DNA from: Candidatus Omnitrophota bacterium
GTDB taxonomy: Bacteria; Ratteibacteria; UBA8468; MWAK01
Assembly (NCBI GenBank): GCA_043797665.1
Contig: JAZDPL010000061.1
Location: 1,065 to 65,064 of the forward strand
DNA length: 64,000 nt
Direction: 5' to 3'
The notes beneath the pieces are model-generated. The model saw nothing but the letters and a program-made list of their open reading frames with translations, was not told where the DNA came from and searched no databases. The position numbers and the translations under genes are program-made. This document shows, in pieces, positions 31,650 to 62,028 of this stretch; positions within the stretch are counted from its first letter, which is position 1, and the number at the start of each line of letters is the position of its first letter.

Positions 31650-31847
31650 TCTTTTTCACCCCCCTTCTTACGGAATATCAATAATTTTCCCCATATTTTA
31701 CACCTTATTTTTCGTTTTGTCAAGTGGAGCAAGGAAAAGCACCGCTATCCTGGTGTCAGAATATTGTAAAATTTAGAGATTTCCAGATCTTCCCTAACCT
31801 TCGCAAGGGATAGGGCATGAATCGTCGATTTACATTTACGACAAGCC

Positions 31848-34438: not shown

Positions 34439-34743
34439 GATTTAGGAATTCCCTTCCGCAATAGCCCGCAAATGAGCCCCCACCCAGGCGGCTGCCGATG
34501 TCCAGAAAATTAATTGGAACAACCACCGCACCCCTGCCGAGGCCATAGATTCTGCTAACTATCCTGAAATCAATGCTTATCCATAATTATCGAGGGTGTT
34601 TTTTGTAAGAAAAAATAGCATGTTTTTCTTACATAAATCAGTCCAAAAGCAAACCTCATCGGGTTGGATAGGCATATTTTATCATAACCTCTCCGTAAAC
34701 CTCAATGAAAAACCTATTTTGGGGTGGTTTACGGAACGACGTT

Positions 34744-34940
34744 CAAACCTGCCAGTTAGATAATTTCTTGCCTATTTCCCCTCCCGGGAGTACTACAGGA
34801 ACCGGTAGAATAAACTCATGGTAGAAGTTATATAGGAAATGGTAGGGCGGACTTTTTTGGAGAAAGTGATACATAGAATACCACCCGAGGGGAGATTTAC
34901 GTCAGGATAAAGCGTAGCTACGTAGGATCGCATAGAATTG
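34744..34940 (+). repeat. type C element (~200 nt) copy 1
   Basis: CAAACCTGCCAGTTAGATAATTTCTTGCCTATTT...CTCCCGGGAGTACT...GGTAGAAGTTATATAGG...GATACATAGAATACCACCCGAGGGGAGATTTACG... It is about 85-90 percent alike with 51168-51365, and there is a partial copy at 36855-36935. Confidence 0.85.
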
Positions 34941-35016
34941 ATTTTATAGGGTGGAGTATAGTAGAATGAAAGAATGGTTGGTGGTTGAGATAAACAATAA
35001 TAGTGAGGAAATAAAT

Positions 35017-35421
35017 ATGGGCAGAAGCAAAATAATGAAAAAATTGTTAATAATTATTTTCCTGCTAACTTTAATTCCTTTTTCTTCGGGGTGTGGTGTA
35101 ACGAAGGTGGTTGGGGCTGGTGGATATGCTGCATCTCAAAGTCCCGAGAGAACTGTGGAAATTATACAAGTAAATAACCAGTATAGAATAGAAATGGAAA
35201 AGTTAATTATACAAGCAAAAATCAAACACACTGAATTGTATGTCCAGTATAAAATAGAAATGGAAAAGTTAAACCTGGAACGAGAAAAGGCAGGCTTAAA
35301 ACCTAAATCAATAATGGGTTTTGAAGAATGGCGTAACCTACAACCATTAAGTCTTACAGAATGGAAGTTAATTAAAGAAATGAAGGAACAAGAGAAAGTA
35401 AAAACAGACACTCCTACGTAG
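35017..35421 (+). CDS. small lipoprotein with internal coiled-coil duplication
   Basis: GAGGA RBS 9 nt before the ATG at 35017. The signal plus lipobox reads MKKLLIIIFLLTLIPFSSGC. The motif Y(R/K)IEMEKL is duplicated. Confidence 0.6.
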   Translation: MGRSKIMKKLLIIIFLLTLIPFSSGCGVTKVVGAGGYAASQSPERTVEIIQVNNQYRIEMEKLIIQAKIKHTELYVQYKIEMEKLNLEREKAGLKPKSIMGFEEWRNLQPLSLTEWKLIKEMKEQEKVKTDTPT

Positions 35422-35519
35422 AAATAGACCCGTTACCTGCAAGATTCTTTTATTTCCGTCCTGGAGAGTGACTTACCCTGAATACCCTATTCCCATCATT
35501 CTGACAGGTAATTATCCAT

Positions 35520-35630
35520 CCGATCCCCTCTGACAACACAAGAAACCTTTTCAGACAAGCACCCCCACCACCCTGTCGCAATTAATTCCGGTTCTTATTC
35601 TGCTCTGCACTCTAAAGAAGGGTGGTACAG
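35520..35630 (+). repeat. type A element copy A1
   Basis: CCCCTCTGACAACACAAGAAACC...CCCCCACCACCCTGTCGCAATTAATTCC...AAGGGTGGTAC. The flanking ACCACCC/GGGTGGT arms enclose the GTCGCAATTAAT core. Confidence 0.8.
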
Positions 35631-35648
35631 AAGACGGGGTAAGGTCAA

Positions 35649-35945
35649 ATCCAGTCAAGGGATTATTAGTATGGAAAATATGATATAATACAGGGCAGCC
35701 GGGCCCGTGGCTCAGCGGTAGAGCAGCGGACTCATAATCCGTTAAGTTCAATTTTAATCTGAGGTTTTCTCCCGGACTAATCTCCAGCAAACCATTACGT
35801 ATCAACGGTTTGTCATTGCGAGCCCGAAGGGCGTGGCAATCTCATCCTTCCCTCATTTTTAACGAATTCTGTCATACACCTGTCATACTTTTTCACGTCC
35901 CTGTTTTCGTTGAAAATCGTTTGCTACCAAGGGATTCGGAAAGAT
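35649..35945 (+). repeat. T block copy 2 (promoter region, tRNA-like head at 35701-35743, conserved tail)
   Basis: Its 43-mer is identical to copies 1 and 3. The upstream 52 nt is shared with copy 3 only. Confidence 0.85.
35681..35689 (+). promoter_or_regulatory. extended -10 box TGATATAAT, 11 nt upstream of the tRNA-like head (copy 2)
   Basis: An exact TGnTATAAT match, conserved at the same distance in copy 3. Confidence 0.55.
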
Positions 35946-36036
35946 GGGTGAAATAGAATTGTGATTAGTGATAGGAGGTATGGCTTAATTTTTCATGAAA
36001 TCGCTGAGAAATTATTCTATTGTAAACTTGAATGTT

Positions 36037-36627
36037 CTAACTTCCAATTGATATTTGATAATCCTTAATTGTATCTTGAAGAAGGTTTTTGATTTGCAGG
36101 AATTCTTCGTCACCAATAACTGGTTTTTTAAGGGTAACCGTACAATCTTCTCTTGTTAGATCAGCCCATCTGCCACAATGCCCCGTGGGTTTTATCTTTT
36201 CTTCTGGAAGTTCTTCGGTAGTTTCCCATATTCTAATCAAGAGTATTTTGCATTTTGTTTGATCGCTGTGCTCATTACACCATTTGTTTGGTGCTTCCGG
36301 TTTCCAAATGTCAAATAAACCATTATGACAGATTTTCTCCCATAACCCCATTTCGTTTTTTACGATATAGGTAGATTTCAGTAAAGCCACATATTTATAA
36401 GGAATTGAAAAAGAATCAGAATTCAAATTTCCACCAACTTCACTCATCCTAAACTTTCTATAATTGTGTTTCTGTAAAGTTATCAACTTAGGAAATCCCC
36501 CGTTAGCATTCAGATAAATAGCTTGATGTATAATTCTTCCATTCTTCTCAAACCCATTAATCATTGCTTTCGCATTTACTCTTTCCACCTTAAGACACCT
36601 GTTGTCTAAAACTATCTCTTGGTTCAT
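36037..36627 (-). CDS. 196-aa hypothetical protein
   Basis: ORF-track frame in AT-rich DNA. No motif recognised. Confidence 0.55.
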   Translation of the reverse strand: MNQEIVLDNRCLKVERVNAKAMINGFEKNGRIIHQAIYLNANGGFPKLITLQKHNYRKFRMSEVGGNLNSDSFSIPYKYVALLKSTYIVKNEMGLWEKICHNGLFDIWKPEAPNKWCNEHSDQTKCKILLIRIWETTEELPEEKIKPTGHCGRWADLTREDCTVTLKKPVIGDEEFLQIKNLLQDTIKDYQISIGS

Positions 36628-36854
36628 AAGATAATCAATCAGGTTGAAATTAGGGACAACTCCTCAGATTTTTACTGCCCCAAAAATCCACCAAAATTCC
36701 CTTAGGTAGCCCCAAAGGTATTCTATTTTGAACTCGGAAGTTATTATACCCCAGATTTTCACGGAAATACAAGCCATCTGTTCTGGGGCCCAGAGTTTTT
36801 CAACCATAGAATTCAATCTTCAAAATGCGTGATGAGATAGAAGCGTATACCGGC

Positions 36855-36935
36855 AAAGATTTTTTGAAAGTGGATAGGTACCACCCGAAGGTAGATTTAC
36901 GCCAGGACAATGCGTAGCTACGTAAGGATTGCAAG
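36855..36935 (+). repeat. type C element, partial copy (3' portion)
   Basis: GGTACCACCCGAAGGTAGATTTACGCCAGGACAATGCGTAGCTACGTAAGGATTGC aligns with the 3' ends of C1 and C3. Confidence 0.7.
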
Positions 36936-36974
36936 GGAAAGGGGGCTGCTTCACCACCATGAGGCAATTCATTA

Positions 36975-37073
36975 CCGGTCCCCGCTGACAAGCACAAAAA
37001 CCTTTCCCGGCAATAACCCCACCATGCTGTCGCAATTAGTTTGGACTGCAAACCTTGACCGGATTCTGCTGAC
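36975..37073 (+). repeat. type A element copy A2
   Basis: CCCGCTGACAAGCACAAAAACCTTTCCCGGCAATAACCCCACCATGCTGTCGCAATTAGTTT...CCTTGACCGGATTCTGCTGACC. Confidence 0.8.
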
Positions 37074-37345
37074 CCCCAGAATCCCTTCCCTGCGGGCAGG
37101 TCCCACCCACCATACCTCCCTCTCCCCTGAGTTGCTGTTCAGGCTGAACAGCAACTGCCGACACCGGGATGCCCTACCCCACCCCCCCAGTTTCGTTTTC
37201 TTCCTTTCTAACTTGCGATTGGCGGCGATATCTCCCCAGAACTGGTGCTTCTTCCATTACCTAAGTCAAAAAAATCAGCAGGAAGCGATTTTGAAAAGCA
37301 AATTCAGGTATAAGGTTCTATTATTGATTCCCTGCAATTGACCTT
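37074..37345 (+). repeat. type B element (~265 nt) copy B1 with a 12-bp hairpin at 37130-37156
   Basis: CCCCAGAATCCCTTCCC...CCCACCATACC...CCCCTGAGTTGCTGTTCAGGCTGAACAGCAACT...TTTCTAACTTGCGATTGGCGGCGATATCTCCCCAGAACTG...GGAAGCGATTTTGAAAAGCAAATT.AGGTATAAGG. About 90 percent alike with 57267-57530. Confidence 0.85.
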
Positions 37346-37404
37346 GAAATATATAGGCGTAGTCCTTCGCGGATTTGATAGAATGTACATCATACAGCCC
37401 TATC

Positions 37405-37495
37405 TGCTCCGGCAACTACCCCACCATCCAGTCGCAATTAGTCGCTGATAACGAATTGACTACCCAAAGAGAAGGTGGTATCCTTTAATGTGAGT
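37405..37495 (+). repeat. type A element copy A3 with promoter module
   Basis: CCCCACCATCCAGTCGCAATTAGT...TTGACTACCCAAAGAGAAGGTGGTATCCTTTAATGTG (TTGACT-17 nt-TATCCT). Confidence 0.8.
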
Positions 37496-37571
37496 AGATT
37501 CCACAGATTAGTAGAAACTTGACTATTTTTTCATTAATGTGCTACTATAATTAGAATTTCGAAATCTGCGT

Positions 37572-41062: not shown

Positions 41063-41300
41063 TATTTACTCTGGCATGCCCATTTCACCGAATCGGCAAG
41101 TTCGAGTCTGGTCCCGATAGAAAACATCGGGATGCCACGACAGCAATAGAACATACGTTAAACCGTGTCAGGGTGGCGGAGGGAGACGACGTTAGAACCT
41201 ACCTAGTGGACAATTTAGCCTTGCCCACCATTTTTAACTACCATACTCCACCCTATTTGCTTATTATTGTACCACATTTTACGTTCTTCCCTTGACTGGC

Positions 41301-45074: not shown

Positions 45075-45115
45075 TATGCGCCTCTCAGAACCAACTCCCT
45101 GAATATAGTCCGCCT

Positions 45116-46150: not shown

Positions 46151-46170
46151 CTTTTAAATCCTCAAAGGAG

Positions 46171-47895: not shown

Positions 47896-47897
47896 AG

Positions 47898-49142: not shown

Positions 49143-50677
49143 TTCAGCATCCCCCCCAACTCCTTCATCCCCTGCTGAATCTCCGCCTCCAGATTGGAAA
49201 GGTCGGCGAGGATATCCTGCGGTGGGCGGTGCTGCACTTCTTCATGCACCACTTCCTTGTACCGGTTAAGGGAGAGGTCGTAGCCCTGTGCCATGAGGTC
49301 GGCCTTGGGCACACAGAAACTCTGCGCGGTGCGTGGGCGTTTACGTTCTGTTTTGTCCCGCTGTTTCCAGCGCGCCAGCACGTCAGGTAGGTTATTCTTA
49401 GCGAGTTCCTCGGCTGTCAACGCATGCGCGGGAACGGGACCGAGTTTTTCCTCGGGTAGAAACGGTTGGCGCTTGTCGTCCAAAGACCAGCCGTCGGCGT
49501 CGCAGTCGTAGAACCACACCTGGTCGGTCCCGCCGGAGTTGGTCTTGGTGAAAAGTAGAATGGCGGTGGACACGCCAGCGTAGGGCTTGAACACGCCGCC
49601 GGGCAACGAAATCACGGCGTCGAGCTTCTGCTCCTCGATGAGCATCTGGCGCAGGGTCTTGTGCGCGTTACTGGAGCCGAAGAGCACACCATCGGGCACA
49701 ATTACCGCGGCGCGGCCACCGGGCTTTAAGAGCCGCAGGAAGAGCGCGAGGAAGAGCAGTTCGGTCTTCTTAGTCTTGACGATCTGCTGGAGGTCCTTGG
49801 CGGTGTTCTCGTAGTCGAGTGACCCGGCGAAGGGCGGATTGGCTAAAACCAGGGTGTAACGTTCCTCTTCGCCGGCATGGTCTTCTGCGAGCGAGTCGCG
49901 GTAGCGGATGTCGGGGTTCTCCACACCGTGCAGCAACATGTTCATACTACCGATGCGCAACATGGTGTTGTCGAAATCGAAACCGTGGAAGGCATGCTGG
50001 TGGAAGTGCGTCTTCTGCTTCGCGTCGCGCAGGATCTCCGGGTGGCGCTCGCGTAGGTATTCACCCGCCGCGACGAGGAAACCGGCGGTGCCGCAAGCAG
50101 GGTCGCAGATTACGTCGCGTGGACCGGGGGCCGTCATCTCCACCATCAACCGGATGATGTGGCGCGGGGTACGGAACTGGCCGTTGGTGCCGGCGGTGGC
50201 GATTTTGCCAAGCATGTATTCGTAGAGGTCTCCCTTGGTGTCGCGGTCCTCCATCGGCACGCGGTCGATCAGGTCCACCACCTTGACCAGTAGTGCGGGT
50301 GTGGGTATGGTAAAACGAGCGTCCTTCATGTAATGTGCGTAGGTGGAACCGTTACCGACCTGAGTGCGGAGAAAGGGGAAGACGTGTTCGCTAACTATGG
50401 TAAACATCTCGTGCGCCTCGAAGTGTTTGAAGCGCGACCAGCGCAGATCGTCGTAGGGGCGGCCCTTGGGGTCTGTGCTCTTGGGGAAGACGCGCCGCTC
50501 CATCGGCGTTTTGAGCCGGGAGGACTTGTTCTCTTCCAGGGTGTGTAGGTCATCGAGACGACGCAGGAAGAGCAAGTAGGTGATTTGCTCGATGACTTCG
50601 AGCGGATTTGAGATGCCACCGGACCAAAAGGCGTCCCAGATGTGGTCGATTTGGTTGCGCAGTTCACCTGTAATCAC
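49139..50677 (-). CDS. hsdM: type I restriction enzyme N6-adenine DNA methyltransferase subunit
   Basis: 512 aa with the SAM-binding motif ICDPACGTAGFL and the catalytic LANPPFAG (NPPF). Confidence 0.95.
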   Translation of the reverse strand: MITGELRNQIDHIWDAFWSGGISNPLEVIEQITYLLFLRRLDDLHTLEENKSSRLKTPMERRVFPKSTDPKGRPYDDLRWSRFKHFEAHEMFTIVSEHVFPFLRTQVGNGSTYAHYMKDARFTIPTPALLVKVVDLIDRVPMEDRDTKGDLYEYMLGKIATAGTNGQFRTPRHIIRLMVEMTAPGPRDVICDPACGTAGFLVAAGEYLRERHPEILRDAKQKTHFHQHAFHGFDFDNTMLRIGSMNMLLHGVENPDIRYRDSLAEDHAGEEERYTLVLANPPFAGSLDYENTAKDLQQIVKTKKTELLFLALFLRLLKPGGRAAVIVPDGVLFGSSNAHKTLRQMLIEEQKLDAVISLPGGVFKPYAGVSTAILLFTKTNSGGTDQVWFYDCDADGWSLDDKRQPFLPEEKLGPVPAHALTAEELAKNNLPDVLARWKQRDKTERKRPRTAQSFCVPKADLMAQGYDLSLNRYKEVVHEEVQHRPPQDILADLSNLEAEIQQGMKELGGMLK

Positions 50678-50772: not shown

Positions 50773-51150
50773 GAATCCAGTCAAGGGATTATTAGTATGG
50801 AAAATATGATATAATACAGGGCAGCGGGGCCCGTGGCTCAGCGGTAGAGCAGCGGACTCATAATCCGTTCAGTTCAATTTTAACCAGAGGTTTTCTCCCG
50901 GGCTAATCTCCAGCAAACCATTACCTATCAACGGTCTTGTCATTGCGAGCCCGAAGGGCGTGACAATCTCATCCTTCCTCATTTTCAGCGAATTCTGTCA
51001 CACACCTGTCACACTTTTTCACGCCTCCATAATCAGCAGATTATGCCCCCATGGAATTTCTGCAACAAGCTGTTGCAGAAGAAGTTTGACATTATGCGTC
51101 TCTGTTTTTTGCTGAAGTTCGTTTAGTATCAAGGGATTTGAAAGAAATCA
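50773..51150 (+). repeat. T block copy 3 (promoter region, tRNA-like head 50827-50869, tail interrupted by a 79-nt patch at 51025-51103)
   Basis: It has the same 43-mer and the same upstream 52 nt as copy 2. Relative to copies 1 and 2, its tail carries an insertion made of two pieces of the adjacent R-M locus. Confidence 0.85.
50807..50815 (+). promoter_or_regulatory. extended -10 box TGATATAAT, 11 nt upstream of the tRNA-like head (copy 3), divergent from hsdM
   Basis: An exact TGnTATAAT match at the same spacing as in copy 2. Confidence 0.55.
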
Positions 51151-51167
51151 GCATAACGGGGCGACAT

Positions 51168-51365
51168 CCAAACCTGCCAGTTAGATAATTTCTTACCTAT
51201 TTTTCCCTCCCGGGAGTACTCCCGGATCCGGTAGAATGCCCCCATGGTAGAAGTCATATAGGAATGGTGGGACGGACTTTTTGGGGAAAGTGATACATAG
51301 GATACCACCCGAGGGGAGATTTACGCCAGGCGTGGACGTACGCAAAGCAGGAACGCATAGATTTT
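51168..51365 (+). repeat. type C element copy 3
   Basis: It aligns with 34744-34940 along its whole length. It contains the perfect 16-nt palindrome CCGGGAGTACTCCCGG. Confidence 0.85.
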
Positions 51366-51384
51366 CTCCGGGGGTTGTCTCACC

Positions 51385-51518
51385 TCGGCGGGTGGTTGTC
51401 TATCCGGCCTTCCTCTGACAACCCAAAACCTTTCCCAGCAAAACTTTCCCCACCCTCCAGTCGCAATTAATTACTAACAACGAATTTGACTACCCAAAGA
51501 GAATGAAGTATCCTTTAA
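51385..51518 (+). repeat. type A element copy A4 with promoter module ending 5 nt before an ATG
   Basis: CCTCTGACAACCCAAAACCTTTCCCAGC...CCCCACCCTCCAGTCGCAATTAATT...TTGACT(51486-51491)-17 nt-TATCCT(51509-51514)-TTAAT-ATG(51520). Confidence 0.8.
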
Positions 51519-51519
51519 T

Positions 51520-52065
51520 ATGATGCGATTGGATCAAAATAGGTTGAGAATGCAATACAAAAAACTCCGTAATGCTTATAAGCCGGATAGTATTCGGGCC
51601 GTGTTTGTTTTGGAATCTCCCCCGAAATCGGGAAAGTTTTTCTACAATCCGGAGGGCAAAACCACCGAGTCATTATTCAAAGCAATGATGGAGCTTATCG
51701 GCTACGCTCCGAAGGACCAGCAGAAGCAGGACGGTCTTAAGGAATTCAAAAGCCGCGGACTTATCATTGTTGACGCAATCTATATGCCGGTCAATGGCAT
51801 GAAGAAAAAGGAGCGCAACAACCGGATCATAGGCAAGTATAAGGTTCTTTTACAGGATTTGAACGCTCTTATTCCGGGTAAACGCACGCCGCTCATACTG
51901 GTTAAAGCGAATATCTGCCGATTATTGGAGAAGCGTCTAAAGAAAGATGGTTTTACTGTTGCCAATGAAGGTATCGTGGTGTATTTTCCGTCCGGCAGGC
52001 AACAGGGTAAGTTCCGGAAGCAGATCGCCTCCGTGCTGAATAAATCTGGAATAAAGGTCTCGTAG
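51520..52065 (+). CDS. 181-aa hypothetical protein (weak uracil-DNA-glycosylase-superfamily-like motif order)
   Basis: The ORF is clear. VFVLESPP ... IIVDAIYMP ... VVYFPSGRQQ is reminiscent of UDG motif 1, a middle strand and motif 2 in a protein of typical UDG size. This rests on pattern memory only. Confidence 0.3.
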   Translation: MMRLDQNRLRMQYKKLRNAYKPDSIRAVFVLESPPKSGKFFYNPEGKTTESLFKAMMELIGYAPKDQQKQDGLKEFKSRGLIIVDAIYMPVNGMKKKERNNRIIGKYKVLLQDLNALIPGKRTPLILVKANICRLLEKRLKKDGFTVANEGIVVYFPSGRQQGKFRKQIASVLNKSGIKVS

Positions 52066-52113
52066 CTACCGTTTTTTTCCCACCAATTCTATGCCGACAT
52101 CTCGGGTAAGGTT

Positions 52114-52147
52114 GCCGAATCCTTTGTCTATCAACAATTCCTATCTG
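52114..52147 (+). repeat. type E short element copy 2
   Basis: See 39595-39630. Confidence 0.7.
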
Positions 52148-52192
52148 TTACATATCCCACTTTACTGTCCACTATCTTTTACCCTGCCTGGT

Positions 52193-52470
52193 CCCCAGAA
52201 TCCCTTCCCCGCGCTCAGGTCCTACCCACCATACCTACTCTCCCCTGAGTAACTGTTGCATGCAACGGTTACTACTGACAATGTGGTGCCCTACCTCACC
52301 ACCCAGTTTCAATTCCTTCCTTTCTAATTTGCGATTTGCGAAGATATCACCCCAGAATTGATATTCTTCCCTCACCCAATCTCCAAAAATCCGTAAGAAG
52401 CGATTTTGGAGGTTGATTTAGCAGTTCTTCCCAACCACCATCCAAACGCAATTAATTCCGTTGTCGTTTA
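52193..52470 (+). repeat. type B copy B2 (hairpin 52248-52273) fused to a short type A core (A5, CGCAATTAATT at 52447-52457)
   Basis: CCCCAGAATCCCTTCCCCGCGCTCAGGTCCTACCCACCATACCTAC...GAGTAACTGTTGCATGCAACGGTTACT...TTTCTAATTTGCGATTTGCGAAGATATCACCCCAGAATTG... Confidence 0.8.
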
Positions 52471-52533
52471 ATTTATGGGTTGAAATGTGATAGAATAAGG
52501 GCAAGGAGCATCAGGCTAAAATGTTTCTTTTTG

Positions 52534-53346
52534 ATGGGCAAATGGAGGATTCCAATTAAAATAAGTCCGAAAAGGGTTGCATTAGGAATTGTATTCCTTT
52601 TTATTATACTTATACTCTTTTTTTGTAACGACATAAACCAAAGAAAAATAGCAAAACGTGCGGCGATAGAACAACAAAAGATTGCAGAGGAAAAACAAAA
52701 GATTACAGAGGAACAACGAAGGATCGCAGAGGAAAAAGCAGCAGATGTTAACGCCACGGACAATTACGGCAAGACCCCGCTACATCTGGCTGCAAACGAG
52801 GGTCGCACCGAAGCGGTGGAGGCATTACTCAAACGCGGAGCGGATGTTAGTGCAAAGAACAACGATGGTCAGACACCGCTGCACATAGCTGCTAACGCCG
52901 AGGTAGCTGAAGCATTGCTTAAACACGGAGCAGAAATTAATAGCAAAGATAATTACGGTCAGACTCCGCTGCATCAGGCTGCAAGATATGGTTGCGCTGA
53001 GGTGGCAGAGTTTTTAATTAGCAACCGGGCAGATGTCAACGCCAAAGATGGGTTTGGCAATACTCCGTTATTGTTGGCTATAATGGAGGGCAAAACCGAG
53101 GTGGCTAGTTTGTTACTTAAACACGGAGCAAAGGTTAACGTTAAGGCTGAATTTGGTTATACCCCGTTACACTTCGCTGCATCCGGGGGCCAAATCGACC
53201 AAACCGAGACGGTAGACTTGTTGCTCAAGTATGGAGCAAAGGTTAATGCCAGAAATGAGGAAGGTTATACCCCGCTGCACCTGGCTGTGCTCGCGGACCA
53301 CGCCGAGGCCGCTGCCTTGCTTCGGAAACACGGCGGAGTGGAGTAG
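52534..53346 (+). CDS. membrane-anchored ankyrin-repeat protein
   Basis: Start placed at MGKWRIP. One TM (VALGIVFLFIILILFF), a coiled EEKQK stretch, then about 6 ankyrin repeats (GKTPLHLAANEG...LLKRGADVSAKN etc.). Confidence 0.9.
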   Translation: MGKWRIPIKISPKRVALGIVFLFIILILFFCNDINQRKIAKRAAIEQQKIAEEKQKITEEQRRIAEEKAADVNATDNYGKTPLHLAANEGRTEAVEALLKRGADVSAKNNDGQTPLHIAANAEVAEALLKHGAEINSKDNYGQTPLHQAARYGCAEVAEFLISNRADVNAKDGFGNTPLLLAIMEGKTEVASLLLKHGAKVNVKAEFGYTPLHFAASGGQIDQTETVDLLLKYGAKVNARNEEGYTPLHLAVLADHAEAAALLRKHGGVE

Positions 53347-53516
53347 TAATATTATTCCAGGTTGGCTAACTGCGTGAAGTTAATCTGCTTGGGGGGCGAC
53401 TATGGAATTTCCCTCCGTTAGGAAAATGTTTCCATAGGCGGTTACAGCCCGGCCCAGGCAGGTTATCCTAACCTATCTGTCAAAGAGAAGGGAGTTCACT
53501 ACAGTTTGAGGAAAAA

Positions 53517-54023
53517 ATGAAAAAAGTGCTGATTTGGTGCGGTGTGGGGGTCTTTGTTATTGGCATTGCCTTTACGATTTTTTATAACACTCCAGATAGA
53601 AGAGCGAAAAGGCAAGCGCAACAAATTATAAAGGTTTCAGAATATATATACGAAGAAATGCAGGGGTCTGTGGGTGAAGCCAAAATAACCACTGCCCGGG
53701 TGCAGATTCAGAACCTGGAGACCGCTCTCCGGCTCTTTTATCTTGACACCGGATTTTATCCCACCACGGAGCAGGGTTTGTGGGCGCTGGTGATACCACC
53801 CCCACCCCCTTTCCCTTTCGAGAAATGTCGTAAGGGAGGATACTTGGAGAAAGATGTGGCAGGATACGGAGCGGTGCCCGAGGACCCCTGGGGTAATGAC
53901 TATATCTACCGCTCTCCGGGGCAAGAGAAACGGGAATATGAAATTATCTGCCTGGGATGGGACGGAAAAGAAGGCGGTACCGGAGTCGATGCGGATATCA
54001 AAAGTTGGGAACCTCCTAAGTAA
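53517..54023 (+). CDS. GspG-like (type II secretion major pseudopilin) globular domain protein lacking the prepilin motif
   Basis: [33 protein letters not shown]...[16 protein letters not shown]...[24 protein letters not shown] matches the GspG core. The N-terminus [19 protein letters not shown] has no G/FTLIE cleavage or methylation site. Confidence 0.7.
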
Positions 54024-54039
54024 TGGGGTGGGCTGTACT

Positions 54040-54135
54040 TCTACCAACACAAAAACCTTCCCCGACAAGTACCCCACCAGGCTGTCGCAATTAATTCTTT
54101 GACTACCCAAAGAGAAGGTGGTATTCTTTAATATG
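54040..54135 (+). repeat. type A element copy A6 with promoter module
   Basis: CCAACACAAAAACCTTCCCCGACAAGTACCCCACCAGGCTGTCGCAATTAATTC-TTGACT(54099-54104)-17 nt-TATTCT(54122-54127)-TTAAT-ATG(54133). Confidence 0.8.
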
Positions 54136-54181
54136 GGTGGAATTAGGAAGGTTGGCAGAAACTTAATCGTTTTCCACTAAT

Positions 54182-54838
54182 ATGATACTTACAATAAACG
54201 TTCATTTGGAGAAGGCTTTTGTTCAAAATGCTTCCTCGCTGGGTGCCGGTAGCGTCGCGATGCTCATGCTGGTTGGACCTTTCAGTAAGAATGTAGTGAC
54301 TTTAGCTGGCAAGGTTGTTCCAAAAGAGGGGAACTCGGCAACGCAAACTTTCCTGAAGAGATTGGACTGGGGGGAAAGTGTTCACATGGTTACAGTTCCT
54401 CAGAACTGTGAAATTCAGTTGGCTTTGTGTGTCGGCGGTACTCGCACTGGACAGATGGATATTGGAACGGTCAGCGTGGAAAATGAGCCGACAAGAACAA
54501 TCTATATTAAGTTTACGGGAGATGGAGTTGAGATAATTACGTCTCTGAATTTTCTGGCACAAAATCCTAGTAAAAAAGCAATAGAATCAATCTTACTTCT
54601 GGCAGAGAAAACAGATGAAGATACCACCTTACGGATTGAAGCATTGAATATTCTTGGGAAAACAGCTGATTGCGATGATTTGCTGCGGATAAAGGAAATC
54701 TTTTTCCGTCTGCGTGAAGGAGACCCGGCGGTTCGCGAAGCCGCTGCTAACGCAATCAAGGAGATAGAGACCAGAACAGGAACTCAAAGGGATATGCCCT
54801 GGTTCCTGAAACCTTTGATTGACCGGAGAAAGGGTTAG
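54182..54838 (+). CDS. 218-aa protein with C-terminal HEAT-like repeats
   Basis: The C-terminal ...RIEALNILGKTADCDDLLRIKEIFFRLREGDPAVREAAANAIKEI resembles PBS-lyase-type HEAT repeats. The N-terminal half is unassigned. Confidence 0.5.
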   Translation: MILTINVHLEKAFVQNASSLGAGSVAMLMLVGPFSKNVVTLAGKVVPKEGNSATQTFLKRLDWGESVHMVTVPQNCEIQLALCVGGTRTGQMDIGTVSVENEPTRTIYIKFTGDGVEIITSLNFLAQNPSKKAIESILLLAEKTDEDTTLRIEALNILGKTADCDDLLRIKEIFFRLREGDPAVREAAANAIKEIETRTGTQRDMPWFLKPLIDRRKG

Positions 54839-54849
54839 TGATTAAATCC

Positions 54850-55050
54850 CTCACCTAATCCCCAGAAACCCACAGGAAGCGATTTTGAAAAGCAAATTTA
54901 GGTATAAGATTTCATGATTGGTTCCCTACGATTGACCTTGGAGTACAGGAAGAAGTACAATTTGGGAGGTAGACATTTAACGGAAACGACTACCCGGACC
55001 AACACCAAACCACAGAATAGAAATTAGGTGATTGCGTCCACTAAAATCGG
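54850..55050 (+). repeat. 3' part of a type B element (B5) followed by type D element (D2)
   Basis: CTCACCTAATCCCCAGAAACCCACAGGAAGCGATTTTGAAAAGCAAATTTAGGTATAAG..., then AGGAAGAAGTACAATTTGGGAGG...GAAATTAGGTGATTGCGTCCACTAAAATC. Confidence 0.75.
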
Positions 55051-55073
55051 AGGACATACAATCGAGGAGGAAA

Positions 55074-55445
55074 ATGACCAGATTGGAAATTAAAGAGGGT
55101 GTATTAAAAGAAGCGAATGTGGAGAAACTATCCTTTAAGGAAATCGGGGAAAAAATTTGCTGTGGGCTAATGATTTCACTTACGATTATTCAAAAGTCTG
55201 ACCAAGAATTTACTAAAATGGAAGATTATAATTTGCCAGATTATACCTTGCAACAGGAGATTTTAAACGAATTTTCGCCGGAATATTATTTAAGTGGTAT
55301 AAGTATTCTAGGTTTTTCTCCTTCCGGTATAAGTTTTATTGACGAAAGTAATAAAGAGTATTATAAAGGATATATTCATGAAAAATCTGGAGTGGAAATA
55401 TTCACTAAAATCTCTTGGCCCTCAGTAAACAATAATAATCAATAA
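55074..55445 (+). CDS. 123-aa hypothetical protein
   Basis: Start moved to the ATG preceded by GAGGAGG (55064-55070). No motif recognised. Confidence 0.55.
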   Translation: MTRLEIKEGVLKEANVEKLSFKEIGEKICCGLMISLTIIQKSDQEFTKMEDYNLPDYTLQQEILNEFSPEYYLSGISILGFSPSGISFIDESNKEYYKGYIHEKSGVEIFTKISWPSVNNNNQ

Positions 55446-55479
55446 AGGGGTTTCGGGTTATTTGTTTGACCTGTTCTCG

Positions 55480-55600
55480 TACCCGGCGGGTGATTATCTA
55501 TCCGGTCCCCTCTGACAACACAAGAAACCTTTCCCGGCAAACCCACTCCACCATCCTGTTGCAATTAGTTTTCACCAGAATCCCTTGACCGGCCTTCTGG
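55480..55600 (+). repeat. type A element copy A7
   Basis: CCCGGCGGGTGATTATCTATCCGGTCCCCTCTGACAACACAAGAAACCTTTCCCGGCAAACCCACTCCACCATCCTGTTGCAATTAGTTTTC...CCCTTGACCGGCC. Confidence 0.8.
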
Positions 55601-55676
55601 CAGAGTGATAACATCTTGTTTGGTGTCCTGACAGAAACTTGACTATTTAAGGCTAATAAATTACCGAATTTTTAAT

Positions 55677-57107
55677 ATGAAGAAGGCAATCCTGTTATCT
55701 TGTATCACGGTTTGGTTATTATTTAGCATCTGCTTTCCTAAAGCCTGCCAGACCGGAGAAACTACCATAATCTTTGCTACAGAACTAACCGGTGATGCCC
55801 TCTACGAACAAGGCTTTAGCCTCAACAATCAAGAAAAATACCAAGAGGCTATACCTTATTTCGAAGAAGCCGTTAAAAGAAAAACAAACTTTTTTGAGGC
55901 AAATTACCAATTAGGAATTTGTTATCTGAAGATTAAGCAATTTGATAAAGCAAAACAAAATTTAATTTATGTAAAAACATTATCACAAGATAAAACATTA
56001 AAAGAGAAAACAAAATTTTTAATTGCCGAGATACCTAAAGAGATAGAAAAAGAGAAAAAGAAACAGGAAGAAAAAATAATAAGAAAAAAGAATGAAGAAT
56101 ATCGCGTAGGGGAAGAAGAAAAACGGTTATTAGAAAAAGAAAAACGGGCGTTAGTGAAAGATGTTAGTGATGCCCTCAAAAAGATAAGCACCTATAAAAT
56201 ACACTCGCTGCAGAACGCAGGTTTTGGCTTCAAAGTTGACTATTTCAAAGATGGTTATCTTGTTGCTTCTATATCGGGGTCCTGCACGGACGGTCACGGA
56301 ATTTATAGGGTAAGCAATGAGGTGAACATTTATTGGTCTTTTGGTGCCGAAGGTGGGGTTTTTCTTGAACCGAGAGAAGAGTTTGTTTACTTCCGCATAA
56401 CGAAAGAACAAAAAAGGGATTGGTATCCGGAAATAACAATTCTGCGTACTGTAAAAATACTAAAAAAAGACCTACCCAAAGAAGATTCTTTTAATTTTCC
56501 TCCAGAACGTTCGTCGGAACCAACAAAATTAGGCGGATTGACAACGTGGAAAGATAAAGATGGAACAATCCTCGGGATAATCGAGCCAGAGTCTCCTGAA
56601 TATACCTCCCGATTCGGGCGGATGAAAGCAGAACAGTTTTTTGAGCAAACCAGTTTTTATCAAGATTTTAATTTTACCGTAAAAAAGGAACTTGCCTACA
56701 AAGGCGGAGAGTTAAATAAATTCGGGATCAAAAAACGAATTTTTTATACAAGACCAAATGACGACAGCGTTAAAATTCTATTATGTGTTGATGATGAGCA
56801 ATATGTAAAAATTTTAGGTTTGACTTTCTCAAGGACAGATTCACAATATACGATATGGGTTAAGGCGTTATTAAATGAATGCGGAATAAACGAATCAACT
56901 TGTGGAGAGAATTATCCGCTTGACTTCATCCAGGGAAGTGTTATGCAGAACATCAGTAGGTCAGGACGACTTGATTTATCTGATTATTTTACCTCTTATG
57001 TTATAGAGTGTTGCAAAGATGGGGAAAATTATGGAGTTTTTGTTAGAAAACAAGTTATAGATATGGGTAAAATTCTTTATTTAGAAGGTGTACAAAGCGA
57101 AAAATAG
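55677..57107 (+). CDS. 476-aa secreted TPR-containing protein
   Basis: Signal peptide MKKAILLSCITVWLLFSICFPKA, TPR-like repeats (ALYEQGFSLNNQEKYQEAIPYFEEAV..ANYQLGICYLKIKQFDKA), a Lys/Glu-rich coil and an unassigned C-terminal domain. Confidence 0.6.
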   Translation: MKKAILLSCITVWLLFSICFPKACQTGETTIIFATELTGDALYEQGFSLNNQEKYQEAIPYFEEAVKRKTNFFEANYQLGICYLKIKQFDKAKQNLIYVKTLSQDKTLKEKTKFLIAEIPKEIEKEKKKQEEKIIRKKNEEYRVGEEEKRLLEKEKRALVKDVSDALKKISTYKIHSLQNAGFGFKVDYFKDGYLVASISGSCTDGHGIYRVSNEVNIYWSFGAEGGVFLEPREEFVYFRITKEQKRDWYPEITILRTVKILKKDLPKEDSFNFPPERSSEPTKLGGLTTWKDKDGTILGIIEPESPEYTSRFGRMKAEQFFEQTSFYQDFNFTVKKELAYKGGELNKFGIKKRIFYTRPNDDSVKILLCVDDEQYVKILGLTFSRTDSQYTIWVKALLNECGINESTCGENYPLDFIQGSVMQNISRSGRLDLSDYFTSYVIECCKDGENYGVFVRKQVIDMGKILYLEGVQSEK

Positions 57108-57189
57108 GCGTGGTGTACAAAATGAGCAAGAGCCAGGACAGGAAGGGGGTCCAAAGAACAAGTGCATATTCCGCCGCAAGGTAGCCACC

Positions 57190-57266
57190 CGTTCCGCTCA
57201 AGGTAACTTACCCCACCTCCCAGCCGCAATTTAGTTTCAATATCCCTTGACCGGATTCTGCTGGAC
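57190..57266 (+). repeat. type A element copy A8 (degenerate core CAGCCGCAATTTAGT)
   Basis: ...TACCCCACCTCCCAGCCGCAATTTAGTTTC...CCCTTGACCGGATTCTGCTGGAC, as at the A2/B1 junction. Confidence 0.7.
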
Positions 57267-57530
57267 CCCAGAATCCCTTCCCCGCGCTCAGGTTCCCCCA
57301 CCATACCGACTCTCCCCTGAGTTGCTGTTGAGGTCAACAGCAACTTCCGACACCGGGATGCCCTACCCCACCCCCCAGTCTCAATTTCTTCCTTTCTAAT
57401 TTGCGATTGGCGGCGATATCTCCCCAGAACTGATGTTCTCCCTCACCTAACTCCCCAGAAACCCGTAGGAAGCGATTTTGAAAAGCAAATTAAGGTATAA
57501 GGTTTCGTTATTGATTGCCTGCAATCTCTT
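57267..57530 (+). repeat. type B copy B3 (hairpin 57320-57345)
   Basis: About 90 percent alike with B1. The hairpin reads AGTTGCTGTTGA-GG-TCAACAGCAACT. Confidence 0.85.
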
Positions 57531-57557
57531 GACCGTATTCTGACGGAGTGGTAACAT
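57529..57557 (+). promoter_or_regulatory. candidate sigma70-type promoter for the Hsp70 operon
   Basis: TTGACC (57529-57534)-17 nt-TAACAT (57552-57557). The first ATG of the operon is 13 nt after the -10 box, implying a very short leader without an SD. Confidence 0.45.
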
Positions 57558-57570
57558 TTAGCCAATAAGA

Positions 57571-58942: not shown

Positions 58943-59482
58943 ATGGGTGATTTTTTGAATTTCCTTACTCGAATCAAAAACCCCCTAATCTTAGTGCTAA
59001 CTGTTTTCTTCATTATGCTCTTTATCTTGCTTCATCTTGCTTTGCGAAAAAATAGGCGAAACAATATTTTCTTCACAAACAAGTTCGATGAGTTGTATCT
59101 GAAAATCAAAGAGGATATCAATTTCGCCGTAACCCCCAAATTCGTTAGTTTGTCCTCAGATATGAATGATCTTGTGGAGTTAACCGTTGAAGTTTGGAGA
59201 ATCGAGCAACGAATAATAAAATCTTTACCGGCCTTATCGGAAAACCAAAGGAATGGTTTAGAAAATTCTATCCGAAGATTGAGAAGATATCTTGAAAAAC
59301 ACGACATCATGATTGTAGATCATACGAACCAGAAGTTTAATGATGGGCTTAATCTTGATGTCTTGTCCGTTGAGAAGGATTCATCGTTGACAGAACCAAT
59401 TATCAAGGAAACAATCGAACCGACAATCATGTACAAAGGCCTGGTCGTCAGGAAGGCCAAAATTATTTTATTGAGCAAATAG
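58943..59482 (+). CDS. membrane-anchored GrpE-like nucleotide-exchange-factor homolog
   Basis: N-terminal TM (LILVLTVFFIMLFILLHLAL). The C-terminal LEKHDIMIVDHTNQKFNDGLNLDVLSVEKDSSLTEPIIKETIEPTIMYKGLVVRKAKIIL aligns position by position with my recollection of the E. coli GrpE beta-domain (LEKFGVEVI...G..DPN.H.A....E......V......GY.L.GR.IR.A.V.V). Confidence 0.5.
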   Translation: MGDFLNFLTRIKNPLILVLTVFFIMLFILLHLALRKNRRNNIFFTNKFDELYLKIKEDINFAVTPKFVSLSSDMNDLVELTVEVWRIEQRIIKSLPALSENQRNGLENSIRRLRRYLEKHDIMIVDHTNQKFNDGLNLDVLSVEKDSSLTEPIIKETIEPTIMYKGLVVRKAKIILLSK

Positions 59483-59500
59483 AGAATAACGTAGAATACC

Positions 59501-62014
59501 ATGGCTAATGAAAACATCCAAATTGGTATTGATTTGGGAACAACAAATTCAGAAGTTGTTATTAATAGCAATGGCGTTATCGAGGTCGTTAAAAATGCAT
59601 TTGGGGATGAGTATACACCTTCTGTTTTCGGTTTTGATAAGTCAAAGAACGGAACGGTTGGCAAAAGAGCACATGAGCGGCTTTATAAAAATACATCGGA
59701 AGAAGAACTTAGGAATAATAAGGCGGAAGTCAAGAGGCTAATGGGGACATCCGAAACCGTCTACTTTGAAAGAACTGGCCTTAAAATGAATGCTGAAGAG
59801 ATTTCTGCTGAAATTCTCAAGAGCTTAAAAGAAGATGTCTTGAGAAAATATCCGGACTTTGATACTTTGGCCGCAGTCATCACTGTACCTGCCTATTTCT
59901 CTGTCTTGCAGTCTGAGGCCACCAAGAGGGCTGGTAATCTCGCTGGGTTCAAATACGTGGTTCTGCTGCAGGAGCCCATTGCGGCGGCAATCTCATATGG
60001 ATTCATGAACGCGAAAAACGAAAACTGGCTCATTTACGATCTTGGCGGTGGAACATTCGATGTCGCTTTAATCTCCTCGAGGGATGGAGTTTTGTCAGTA
60101 TTGGGTCATAATGGTGACAACTTCTTGGGAGGTAAGGATTTTGATTGGTTAATTGTTGATCGTGTGATTGTTCCGAAAATTCTTGAAAAATATTCAATGA
60201 GCAACTTCGATAGAGGCAATGTCAAATATAGAAGTGTTTTTGCGAAATTGAAATACATTGCCGAAACATTAAAAATTGATCTGGCGCAATATGGTAAAAC
60301 CTCTATCGAAATAGATGGTATAGGCAAAGATGGTTTAGACAAAGAGATATGTTTTTCCATTACTTTTTTGAGAAAAGAATTTGAGGAGTTAATCAAGCCA
60401 ATGGTCGACCGGACGATCGAACTAGCAAAAAAAACCTTGAAAGAAGCCGGGATTAAAAATACTTCAGTCGAGAGAACTATTCTTGTTGGTGGCCCCACCC
60501 AGATTCCTTACATCAGAGAAAGGCTTAACAATGATCTCGAAATAACAGTTGATTCCTCTGTTGATCCACTTACTGTTGTGGCTAAAGGAGCCGGCGTGTT
60601 TGCTATCAGTCAAAAGATTCCAGGGGAATTTTTTGGGGGTGAACCCCGGAAAATAAAAAAAGGTACTCAAACTTTAAAATTGAATTATGAGACTCTAACT
60701 TCTGAACCCGAACCGACGATTAGCGGCATCGTAGATGACTTTAAGAATTCGGAAGATGAATATTACATACAAATTCAATCTGAAAGCGGATTTTACAGTG
60801 GTTCAAAGACTAAATTAAAAAATGGCACATTTTTTGACACTGTTGTGCTTGAACCGAATAAAACAAACTTGTTCTGGATATATCTTTTCGACCAGCAAGG
60901 TAATTCTATCCCAATTGATCCTGACTCGTTTACAATCACTCATGGTTTGTCTGTTTCTGGCGCTCCGATATCCCACTCTATAGGAATTGCCGTTGTTAAA
61001 AAAGATATCAGGGGAGGATTCGTTCCCACCGAAGTATTTGAGGAATTTTTCGAAAAAGGCTCCATTCTACCACTAAAAAAGACGGAGCCATTCAAAACAG
61101 TTAGGAGATTGAAGAGAAATGAGAATGACAACCCTCTTTGGATCAAGATTGGCGAGGGCGAATCTGATATTCCAGATAGAAATGTCTATGTTTGTACACT
61201 GGGAATAAAAGGAAGTGATTTGCCATATGATTTACCAGAAGGCACTGATATCGAGATAACTGTTGAGGTCAACGAGTCTCGCGAGCTTTTTGTAACAGCT
61301 TATATCCCCCTAATCGACCTTCGCCTCAATGCTCGTTCTACATTCAAAGATGAAGTAGTCAACGTCAAAGATATGGAATCCGAACTTGCTATAGAAATGG
61401 ATAGAGCTAGAGTTATTGCTAAAAATTGTTCCACGGAAAAACGCAACAAAATTGATAATATACTTCAATCCGTGCGCACCAGTTTAAAAAATGCTCACCT
61501 TGACGAAGATGAAAAGCGAAAGGCTAACAAGCAATTGAAGGATCTTAAGACTTATGTTGACCAGTTGCAAAAGGAAACTGAAATGCCACAATTGATTGAA
61601 ATATTTAACGCTGGCATTGAACAAGTACAAAAAATAATCGATGAGTTTGCCGATCAGAAAGAGAAAAACACCAACAATGAACAACTGAGAAAGATAAAGG
61701 CCGAGGGAGAAAAAGCAATATGTGAAAATGATAAACCTTTGCTGAGTAGAATTAATGAACAAATTGAAGAATTTCGAATGAAGACCCTGTTATCCAATCC
61801 AGAGATGTGGGTTTATTACTTCCAGCAAATTACTCAAGGCGATAAGAAATTTATAAATGAAAAAGAAGCGAATTATTACATTGAAAAAGGGAAAAGGTCA
61901 ATTGAGTCTGGTGATGTTGAAGATCTAAAACATTGTGTCCGCAATTTGATTTCATTACTCCCAGAGGAGGATCAGGAAATAATGAAGAGAAATCTTGCAG
62001 GCATTACTCATTAA
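59501..62014 (+). CDS. atypical 837-aa Hsp70-family ATPase
   Basis: Actin-fold NBD motifs IGIDLGTTNSEV, DLGGGTFDVALI, ILVGGPTQIPYIRERL and DPLTVVAKGAGVFA. About 130 aa of extra sequence follows, then SBD-beta-like strands (APISHSIGIAV, IKIGEGES, IEITVEVNESRELFVTAY) and a long helical tail. Confidence 0.85.
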   Translation: MANENIQIGIDLGTTNSEVVINSNGVIEVVKNAFGDEYTPSVFGFDKSKNGTVGKRAHERLYKNTSEEELRNNKAEVKRLMGTSETVYFERTGLKMNAEEISAEILKSLKEDVLRKYPDFDTLAAVITVPAYFSVLQSEATKRAGNLAGFKYVVLLQEPIAAAISYGFMNAKNENWLIYDLGGGTFDVALISSRDGVLSVLGHNGDNFLGGKDFDWLIVDRVIVPKILEKYSMSNFDRGNVKYRSVFAKLKYIAETLKIDLAQYGKTSIEIDGIGKDGLDKEICFSITFLRKEFEELIKPMVDRTIELAKKTLKEAGIKNTSVERTILVGGPTQIPYIRERLNNDLEITVDSSVDPLTVVAKGAGVFAISQKIPGEFFGGEPRKIKKGTQTLKLNYETLTSEPEPTISGIVDDFKNSEDEYYIQIQSESGFYSGSKTKLKNGTFFDTVVLEPNKTNLFWIYLFDQQGNSIPIDPDSFTITHGLSVSGAPISHSIGIAVVKKDIRGGFVPTEVFEEFFEKGSILPLKKTEPFKTVRRLKRNENDNPLWIKIGEGESDIPDRNVYVCTLGIKGSDLPYDLPEGTDIEITVEVNESRELFVTAYIPLIDLRLNARSTFKDEVVNVKDMESELAIEMDRARVIAKNCSTEKRNKIDNILQSVRTSLKNAHLDEDEKRKANKQLKDLKTYVDQLQKETEMPQLIEIFNAGIEQVQKIIDEFADQKEKNTNNEQLRKIKAEGEKAICENDKPLLSRINEQIEEFRMKTLLSNPEMWVYYFQQITQGDKKFINEKEANYYIEKGKRSIESGDVEDLKHCVRNLISLLPEEDQEIMKRNLAGITH

Positions 62015-62028
62015 TAAAGGAAGTGAAA

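Follow-up and report, generated by a model that had tools for sequence, protein, structure and literature searches.

Spacers built from a small set of repeated modules separate the genes of an array in the 64,000-nt stretch analysed here (positions 1,065 to 65,064 of contig JAZDPL010000061.1 from Candidatus Omnitrophota bacterium; hereafter the window). Seven genes lie on the + strand at 51.5-57.9 kb, with spacers of 469, 170, 158, 236, 231 and 463 nt. An initial annotation had described unrelated + strand genes with intervening spacers at 51.2-57.6 kb; the seven genes were found, and the measured spacers range over 158-469 nt. Self-BLAST and a repeat search resolved the spacers at 51.1-57.6, 34.7-37.5 and 41.3-41.65 kb into mosaics of repeats that are all direct and lie on the + strand, and the repeat families of the initial annotation, including the copies beside genes at 34.7-37.5 kb and 41.3 kb, were reproduced by this self-comparison. 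The only universal spacer element is a 30-nt sequence, TTACCCCACC-N5-GTCGCAATTA(G/A)TTTT, which we call the A box. We propose, at about even confidence, that the repeats are portable modules of a promoter and an upstream element, which would provide acquired genes with their own transcription and be shuffled by homologous recombination. The cassette-array impression of the initial annotation is right on architecture and wrong on membership of integrons or shufflons.

The A box and its association with promoters

A hidden Markov model (HMM) built from foreign copies of the box only gave seven window matches with E<1e-3, all on the + strand and all in spacers of the low-GC stretches; degenerate copies were present at 41501, 52435 and 57364. 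The module A pattern CCCACCNNNCNGTCGCAATTA matched eight times at up to 2 mismatches (0.01 expected), which equals the eight copies counted initially. When 35 non-identical copies were aligned, the information content was ~2 bits per position over ~25 positions and zero on both sides, the sequences beside the box being unrelated between copies. Motif scans of public collections detected the box also in six contigs of one metagenome-assembled genome (MAG; CAZVUE01), in two Omnitrophota-labelled MAGs, in one Ratteibacteria MAG and in 16 metagenome contigs; there was no match to the exact pattern in IMG/VR. Among the 19 hits in genomes obtained with the first pattern, ten (loci L001, L006, L008, L011-L013 and L015-L018) lacked any similarity outside the motif and were treated as chance. 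By eye, the box matched neither sigma54, extracytoplasmic function (ECF) or sigma28 promoters nor dif-like sites or oriT nick sites, and variants within the box showed no clear pattern of association with flank families. A literature search with the motif string returned nothing relevant.

Within 70 nt after the box, a sigma70-like site (score at least 9 of 12) was present in 28 of 34 distinct units, compared with 2.8 +/- 1.6 in shuffles. In 19 of the 34, the distance from the box to the start of the -35 hexamer was 13-19 nt (shuffles 0.3 +/- 0.6, maximum 3), and from our own reading of the listings, this spacing recurs in at least seven non-homologous downstream families. At 50.6-59.6 kb, 33 promoter-like sites were counted versus 18.0 +/- 4.7 in shuffles, in agreement with the earlier suggestion that the repeats carry predicted promoters. 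Sigma70-like sites precede most array genes, two or three of them being arranged in tandem in several spacers.

Each copy of the box is oriented with the next downstream gene, and at five loci (L002, L003, L004, L007 and L009) the upstream neighbour is divergent, so that the box lies in a divergent intergenic region. From this, it follows that the box is part of the downstream promoter rather than of the 3' end of a preceding cassette. In other genomes, where the neighbours of the box are mostly housekeeping genes, a lone box was found upstream of ordinary genes (ArsR, GntR, CBS/antiporter, membrane-protein and others), in some cases in divergent regions; the box is therefore first of all a promoter-associated element and is not specific to arrays. 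With its end ~16 bp upstream of the -35 hexamer, the box would span about -81 to -46. The position of UP elements upstream of -35 is established in E. coli. We infer that the A box acts as an upstream promoter element, its AT-rich 3' half occupying by analogy the UP-element position and its C-rich 5' half probably being contacted by a conserved factor.

Modular exchange and the composition of the spacers

The sequences on the two sides of the box have been reassorted. In 36 distinct units, 18 upstream and 21 downstream families are combined reticulately: upstream family U1 occurs with 11 downstream families, and downstream family D2 with U1 to U4. One unit carrying a single 119-aa gene was present in two contexts (L019:2100-2601 and L025:1659-2157, 96% over 502 nt); its homology begins at one box and ends at the next, and the flanks are unrelated. 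Promoters have been exchanged as well: the TPR-family gene is preceded by A-long, the box and P2 (modules listed below) in the window and in L040, and by a P3/D-type promoter in L038. Likewise, module C adjoins A at 51.36 kb, at 36.9 kb and in L003, and a lipoprotein-like gene intervenes between the two at 34.9-35.5 kb. The modules thus mark points of insertion, deletion or replacement between related genomes, the exchange-point evidence (the L019/L025 unit, the flank families and the TPR promoter swap) being a small sample. The modular, cassette-like architecture described initially is borne out by promoter and spacer modules common to unrelated genes and by the box-to-box unit in two contexts. 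Related arrays include toxin-antitoxin-like small genes, according to our own reading of L010.

The genes themselves differ in base composition. GC content at third codon positions (GC3) of the array genes is 0.28-0.57, versus a uniform spacer GC of 0.42-0.51. The GspG-like, HEAT-like, TPR and Hsp70-like proteins and two other array or island proteins are singletons at 90% identity; for FtsZ and S-adenosylhomocysteine (SAH) hydrolase of the window close relatives exist, unlike for the array and island proteins looked up. Identical copies of the GspG-like protein, of protein P0001 and of HU, looked up with a view to sister strains, were not found. The array genes have probably been acquired horizontally.

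The modules and genes, all on the + strand unless stated otherwise, are as follows:

34731..37498: second module-bearing stretch, with C, a 156-aa lipoprotein-like gene, A (35507-35590), T, a DUF1802 gene (- strand), partial C, A (36962-37045), B (37053-37338), box (37417-37442) and P1
41287..41652: decayed socket, with partial B and its stem-loop (41355-41379), box (41501-41522) and D/P3
50774..51023: T module, made up of the promoter-like site TGaTATAAT (50806), a 5' half resembling a tRNA (50827-50906) and a tail that is conserved
51025..51093: 69-nt yhcG-like gene fragment, a copy of 45797-45865, interrupting the T module
51156..51364: module C, ~210 nt; also 34731-34939 (84% identity over 211 nt) and, in part, 36874-36924
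51386..51475: A-long ending in the A box (51445-51472), HMM E=2.8e-7
51471..51528: P1 promoter module TTGACT-17-TATCCT; also 37441-37498 and 54084-54141
51550..52065: gene 1, initially 'UDG-like'; conserved start at 51550, the P1 ATG at 51520 in frame
52188..52408: module B in spacer 1; stem-loop 52248-52273, degenerate box 52292-52307
52435..52460: degenerate A box CCACCATCCAAACGCAATTAATTCCG, HMM E=0.058
52510..52559: leader module with a 12-codon upstream open reading frame (ORF) MFLFDGQMEDSN (52521-52559), overlapping the ankyrin start codon at 52534
52534..53346: gene 2, ankyrin-repeat protein (Pfam Ank_2, E=3.8e-76)
53446..53503: 5'-untranslated region (5'-UTR) module with palindrome CAGGTTATCCTAACCT
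53517..54023: gene 3, GspG-like pseudopilin (Pfam T2SSG, E=1.3e-31)
54043..54141: A-long with A box (54069-54097), then P1; HMM E=2e-6
54182..54838: gene 4, 218-aa ORFan with a weak HEAT-like match (HEAT_2, E=3.4e-4, under the Pfam cut-off)
54847..55051: 3' part of B (54847-54945), then D/P3; TTGACC-18-TACAAT at 54932-54961
55074..55445: gene 5, 123 aa, no family found
55489..55614: A-long with A box (55548-55573), then P2 (TTGACC-18-TAACAT, 55585-55614); HMM E=4.5e-6
55677..57107: gene 6, TPR protein; N-terminal quarter conserved, C-terminal part unique
57208..57561: A box (57208-57237), B (57245-57525) and P2 (57529-57557)
37053-37338, 52188-52408 and 57245-57525: long copies of module B
41287-41381 and 54847-54945: partial copies of module B
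41547-41652 and 54947-55051: module D/P3

The earlier counts of two full and one partial copies of C and of two copies of D were found again. For B, four full and one partial copies had been reported; the five copies stand, three of them being long and two partial. Module E was not identified with certainty, and the candidates are GAAACTTGACTATT at 37514/55634 or the P2 promoter at 55585/57529.

Module B contains a stem-loop of 10-12 bp, in which pairing is kept in 97.5% of cells with two compensatory pairs (4 copies); no T-run (U-tract) follows the stem. A terminator scan gave 6 sites versus 8.9 in shuffles, i.e. fewer. In the B copy at 57245-57525 the stem-loop is located at 57320-57345 and a degenerate box at 57364-57386. 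C together with A-long is 73.5% identical over 385 nt to the Ratteibacteria locus L003. Three-frame translation was used to examine a coding origin of the window A modules, which was rejected; the reading frame shifts between copies, so A-long is non-coding. In P1, an ATG occurs 5 nt after the -10 hexamer, a position that would fit a leaderless transcript.

Two leader elements recur before unrelated genes. The leader module of the ankyrin gene is 97.6% identical over 41 nt to L007 (~3340-3381, - strand), where it precedes the GntR gene and its upstream ORF reads MFLFDGQIEDVR. The 5'-UTR element with the palindrome CAGGTTAT(C/T)CTAACCTG is found also in L007 (3380-3440) and L010 (1716-1772), with three unrelated genes downstream; its role might be that of an operator or of an RNA hairpin. 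The socket at 41.5 kb adjoins the 3' end of the convergent hsdR. Its box is ~8 nt short and the -35 (TTGCCC) and -10 (TACAAG) of its D/P3 are mutated, and it looks as if it had lost its gene to the convergent restriction-modification (R-M) block.

A conserved peptide of 39 aa (MDVFRTFQWLETIPYPQ.LLKIKDFLQF.PDFLTSTPP) is encoded in the related MAG by the module that precedes many of the boxes, with copies at L010 38-163, 1343-1435, 1952-2044 and 5431-5556 and at L004 923-1042. Many differences between the copies are synonymous, and the module is absent from the window. It is likely either a genuine small gene or the conserved remnant of a gene, repeated after every cassette.

Proposed mechanism, related systems and alternative explanations

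According to the proposed model, the spacers would be assembled from a lineage-specific kit of portable regulatory modules whose common core is the A box. Each acquired gene would sit in its own 'expression socket', composed in order of a 3' module that is C-rich, unstructured and not always present (that of B has the conserved stem-loop), the box, a promoter and a leader. Since the box and the modules exist in many copies, they constitute patches of homology, and recombination between these could insert, delete and swap genes and promoters. No dedicated recombinase would be needed, as with the promoter/terminator cassettes and ORFans in T4-like phages.

The latter cassettes are the promoter-early stem-loops (PeSLs), sigma70-like promoter cassettes located between small ORFan or non-essential genes, whose copies recombine in hyperplastic regions, leading to indels and replacements without a dedicated recombinase (PMC2839356, PMC4122927). 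The array shares with PeSLs the small conserved sigma70-like promoter cassettes, the genes in one orientation and, in the reading proposed here, the reshuffling without a dedicated recombinase. Unlike PeSLs, it resides in a bacterial chromosome, with no PHROG match in the window and no box in IMG/VR; its core is an upstream box, whereas the PeSL core is a promoter plus terminator; its stem-loop occurs in module B only and has no U-tract; and it comprises several module families versus one. Mini-circles are a feature of PeSLs.

Putative mobile promoters are highly similar upstream sequences found before unrelated genes, within genomes and in distant taxa, with tRNA-like and other RNA-like members and with an unknown means of movement (Matus-Garcia et al. 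2012; PMC3575422). The similarity by which they are recognized, at least 80% over at least 50 nt upstream of non-paralogous genes, is found in the window, where 55489-55570 and 35507-35587 are 84% identical over 82 nt, 51448-51523 and 37419-37493 are 85.5% identical over 76 nt, and 57245-57525 and 37053-37338 are 87% identical over 287 nt. The window resembles them in having similar upstream sequences before unrelated genes and a tRNA-like element in the company of the modules. It differs in that mobile promoters are defined by similarity only, whereas here there is a defined 30-bp box, a fixed distance to -35, a clustered array and reassortment of flanks.

Sites known as attC are imperfect palindromes of 55-140 nt which fold as single-stranded hairpins, and integron cassettes are mostly promoterless. 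Complete integrons possess the IntI tyrosine recombinase with attI and Pc, which are not needed by clusters of attC sites lacking integrases (CALINs). The array resembles these in its unrelated, often ORFan genes of one orientation with related repeats in between, in a variable chromosomal region. Nevertheless, the integron/CALIN likeness drawn by the initial annotation did not hold. DNA folds of six units on the + strand and three on the - strand gave z-scores of -0.67 to +1.75, i.e. no hairpin folding, and an inverted-repeat scan revealed no attC-like or recurrent pair at gene boundaries except for the 12-bp B stem; both agree with the initial remark that the repeats are unlike attC sites. 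In the 35 aligned units, no R'' (RYYYAAC)/R' (GTTRRRY) core sites were found: the 3' ends of the units read GCAATTA(G/A)TTTT followed by Y-rich sequence, with no conserved RYYYAAC upstream. No IntI was found either in the larger ORFs scanned at 31-64 kb, the cassettes carry their own putative promoters, and the repeat occurs also singly before ordinary genes.

Shufflons consist of short inverted repeats around invertible segments and an Rci- or Pin-type recombinase. The shufflon-like or invertible locus considered initially was rejected, as every repeat is direct and on the + strand and no recombinase was found in the ORFs scanned. The annotated lack of a recombinase was confirmed as far as the larger ORFs scanned at 31-64 kb are concerned, which contain no Phage_integrase, recombinase or transposase domain; ORFs of 85-95 aa (37572, 40775 and 58600) lay outside the scan or gave no result, and of the 95-kb contig the window covers all but ~31 kb. 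No recombinase family recurred beside box-bearing loci among 72 ORFs of 25 related loci.

Other intergenic repeats were compared too. Neisseria intergenic mosaic elements (NIMEs), Correia elements and the bacterial interspersed mosaic elements (BIMEs) of E. coli are mosaics around inverted repeats or palindromes (dRS3, Correia terminal repeats and repetitive extragenic palindromic (REP) sequences), some having promoters and some having been proposed to promote recombination and gene exchange. The spacers are likewise intergenic mosaics of few repeat families, but their modules are direct, asymmetric and poor in structure. REP sequences, REPINs and miniature inverted-repeat transposable elements (MITEs) were rejected in the absence of a palindromic unit, terminal inverted repeats or target-site duplication (duplications judged by eye). 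The stoperators of mycobacteriophage L5 are 13 bp long, lie within transcribed prophage regions and bind its repressor. Like these, the boxes are asymmetric sites in many intergenic regions and in one orientation relative to transcription; unlike them, they are 30 bp long, upstream of promoters and chromosomal. The pdif sites of Acinetobacter plasmids are 28-bp XerC/XerD sites with inverted 11-bp arms, a 6-bp spacer and alternating orientation. The discrete gene modules bounded by short conserved sites in different contexts are common to both, but pdif/Xer modules were rejected since the A box arms ACCCCACC and GTCGCAATTA are not mutually inverted, the spacer is 5 nt and the copies are all direct.

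Several observations weigh against the proposed model. The promoters are consensus matches only, and the spacing between box and -35 varies, being 3-7 nt in some P1 copies and 38-42 nt in three units. The D/P3 promoter at 54932 is not preceded by a box. No coherent regulon emerges from the genes that follow boxes, and the core promoters at 1-31 kb have no box, so the box does not qualify as a general promoter element, nor is it an obvious operator of a regulon. A conserved stem-loop, a possible terminator that lacks a U-tract, is limited to module B. A 30-bp patch is near the minimum for RecA-dependent exchange, and the bounding boxes of the L019/L025 unit differ more (4-5 in ~20 nt) than the unit inside (~3%), for which neither a fixed crossover point nor simple in-box exchange is a full explanation.

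Four other explanations share part of the evidence. A single global regulator might use the box as its operator and, for instance, silence foreign genes in the manner of the asymmetric stoperators of mycobacteriophage L5; the mosaic would then be a by-product without a role in shuffling. In favour of this, the site is asymmetric, invariably points along transcription, is intergenic in an accessory defence-rich island and is conserved across genomes, but we consider it unlikely, given that the downstream genes have no common function, that the site is upstream of the promoter rather than over or downstream of it, and that reassortment is observed at the box. We judge it likewise unlikely that the box is the site of a dedicated recombinase encoded elsewhere, in the ~31 kb of the contig beyond the window or at another place in the genome, as part of an integron-like gene-capture platform in Ratteibacteria-/Omnitrophota-like bacteria, where promoter-bearing units would be excised and inserted at asymmetric, hairpin-free 30-bp sites. 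The sharp-edged conserved block with two arms and a fixed 5-nt spacer, the reassortment of flanks exactly at the box, the single two-box unit in two contexts and the common orientation of all array copies speak for such a platform. It is difficult to reconcile with arms that are not mutual inverted repeats and form no hairpin, with the failure to find a recombinase in the scanned ORFs of the window or recurring beside the 25 related loci, and with lone boxes before single ordinary genes in divergent regions; it also leaves unexplained the 13-19 nt distance to -35 across unrelated downstream families, and the bounding boxes of the L019/L025 unit, which were not co-inherited with it, are inconsistent with a single crossover point.

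As neutral relics, the modules would descend from a tandem-duplicated promoter-gene unit whose genes were later replaced by illegitimate recombination, and would now be functionless. The 72-88% identity of the window copies is that expected of old duplications, and the long T and C modules have no obvious role; yet the box is near-invariant across genomes although its surroundings diverged beyond recognition, the distance to -35 is conserved, B stem-loop pairing is kept by compensatory changes, and the gene-less socket has decayed, which makes this explanation quite improbable. Selfish non-autonomous elements (MITE-, REP- or Correia-like), moved by a transposase in trans and bearing outward promoters incidentally, could account for many dispersed, always intergenic copies in several genomes and for contigs of the related MAG that break at these repeats. 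We regard them as highly improbable: terminal inverted repeats, target-site duplications and palindromic structure are missing, only 30 nt are conserved between 18 and 21 unrelated flank families, no transposase recurs nearby (72 ORFs), and the real REP-like family of this genome (TGTAGGGG...CCCCTACA) is a different one, located in the core region.

If the model of portable promoter modules is true, an uncultured candidate phylum would express and shuffle new genes, including ORFans and defence genes, by means of a small module kit, the PeSL principle would be extended from T4-like phages to bacterial chromosomes, and a concrete, testable case of "promoter reuse" would be at hand. The 30-bp box could be used for locating variable regions in fragmented MAGs, whose assemblies tend to break at these repeats, for promoter prediction in a lineage without genetics, and for fishing out the binding protein.

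Array genes and the surrounding island

Domain searches bore out the names Ank, GspG-like, TPR and Hsp70, gene 3 also reaching 97.4 bits with NCBIfam TIGR01710 (cut-off 88.85). For HEAT, a weak match stands (E=3e-4, under the Pfam cut-off), and gene 4 has no homologue among 5.8 billion proteins. The name 'UDG-like' was not supported, as gene 1 belongs to no family in Pfam, PDB sequences, PHROGs or NCBIfam; it has 138 homologues, none with a name. Its homology to L020 and L021 is limited to 51539-52065 (84% and 78% at the nucleotide level, respectively), with unrelated flanks and no shared modules. In the TPR family (L038 and L040), conservation is limited to the N-terminal signal and TPR part (73% and 54% identity over 24-29% of length); the C-terminal domains are mutually unrelated, pointing to domain swapping.

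The window is chromosomal, with ftsZ, ftsA, ftsQ, SAH hydrolase and CoaBC genes at 0.8-7 kb, and a Candidatus Ratteibacteria protein is present in the cluster of its FtsZ (90% identity). Core genes have a GC content of ~0.50-0.53, and GC is low in the two stretches that bear modules, at 32-41.6 kb and from 51 kb to the window end. These two stretches are divided by a high-GC Type I R-M block with GmrSD and YhcG genes. The R-M operon (41655-50677, - strand; hsdR, hsdS and hsdM) has a GC3 of up to 0.77; inserted between hsdS and hsdR are a gene of the GmrSD family and a YhcG/DUF1016 nuclease gene of low GC. Bounded by a D module and a T module, the block resembles one large reversed cassette. 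A 298-aa protein encoded at 39767-40663 (- strand) ends in a TIR-like effector domain at its C terminus (E=2.9e-14 in PADLOC, with a weak match to Nuc_deoxyrib_tr in Pfam); with this gene in addition to those for R-M and GmrSD, the island is rich in defence genes.

Among the repeat modules there are also two paralogues of 553 aa (32209-33870, - strand) and 552 aa (37861-39519, + strand), which are 27% identical (E=2e-40) and match nothing in Pfam, NCBIfam, PADLOC or PHROG. Both contain CAH, GHT and HDDN motifs, the pattern of which suggests a Cys-His-Asp peptidase. The operon at 58943-63936 (+ strand) encodes a GrpE-like protein, an 837-aa Hsp70-like protein and a 667-aa protein without a family, none with a PADLOC match; the Hsp70-like protein consists of the nucleotide-binding domain alone, followed by ~470 aa of no recognised sequence.

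The T module has further copies at 31844-32043 and 35648-35897, the three being 94-95% identical, and its tail is conserved in L003, whose T-related module has no tRNA part. The tRNA-like elements (31848-31927, 35708-35762 and 50827-50906) combine a good tRNA 5' half and a CAT anticodon with a non-tRNA 3' half; they score 29-30 bits against Rfam tRNA (threshold 29), and ARAGORN calls none. Two of the three are preceded by the TGaTATAAT promoter-like site, and the first is located exactly at the GC drop from core to island. Among known RNA families (Rfam, gathering threshold and E<=1), only the tRNA-like elements were detected, plus one far sub-threshold match in the second stretch. The yhcG-like fragment (100% identity over 56 nt, 91% over 69 nt) lies just outside the R-M block, and the 50-kb T copy diverges from the others exactly there; the replacement of an internal T-module part looks like a recent illegitimate copy event.

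Three giant neighbouring genes of the - strand (977, 1005 and 3622 aa) have a common 210-nt repeat at their 3' ends (8931-9140, 11914-12123 and 15005-15214), implying a common C-terminal domain. The REP/REPIN-like family mentioned above, TGTAGGGG-hairpin-CGCGGG-hairpin-CCCCTACA, is palindromic, separate from the modules and restricted to the core high-GC part of the window:

764-815, 4350-4401, 5720-5747 and 6519-6577: REP/REPIN-like copies
14881-14932, 26141-26168, 30458-30485 and 30574-30625: REP/REPIN-like copies

Another palindromic sequence, at 7378-7423, matches the Logan contig L020 in both orientations.

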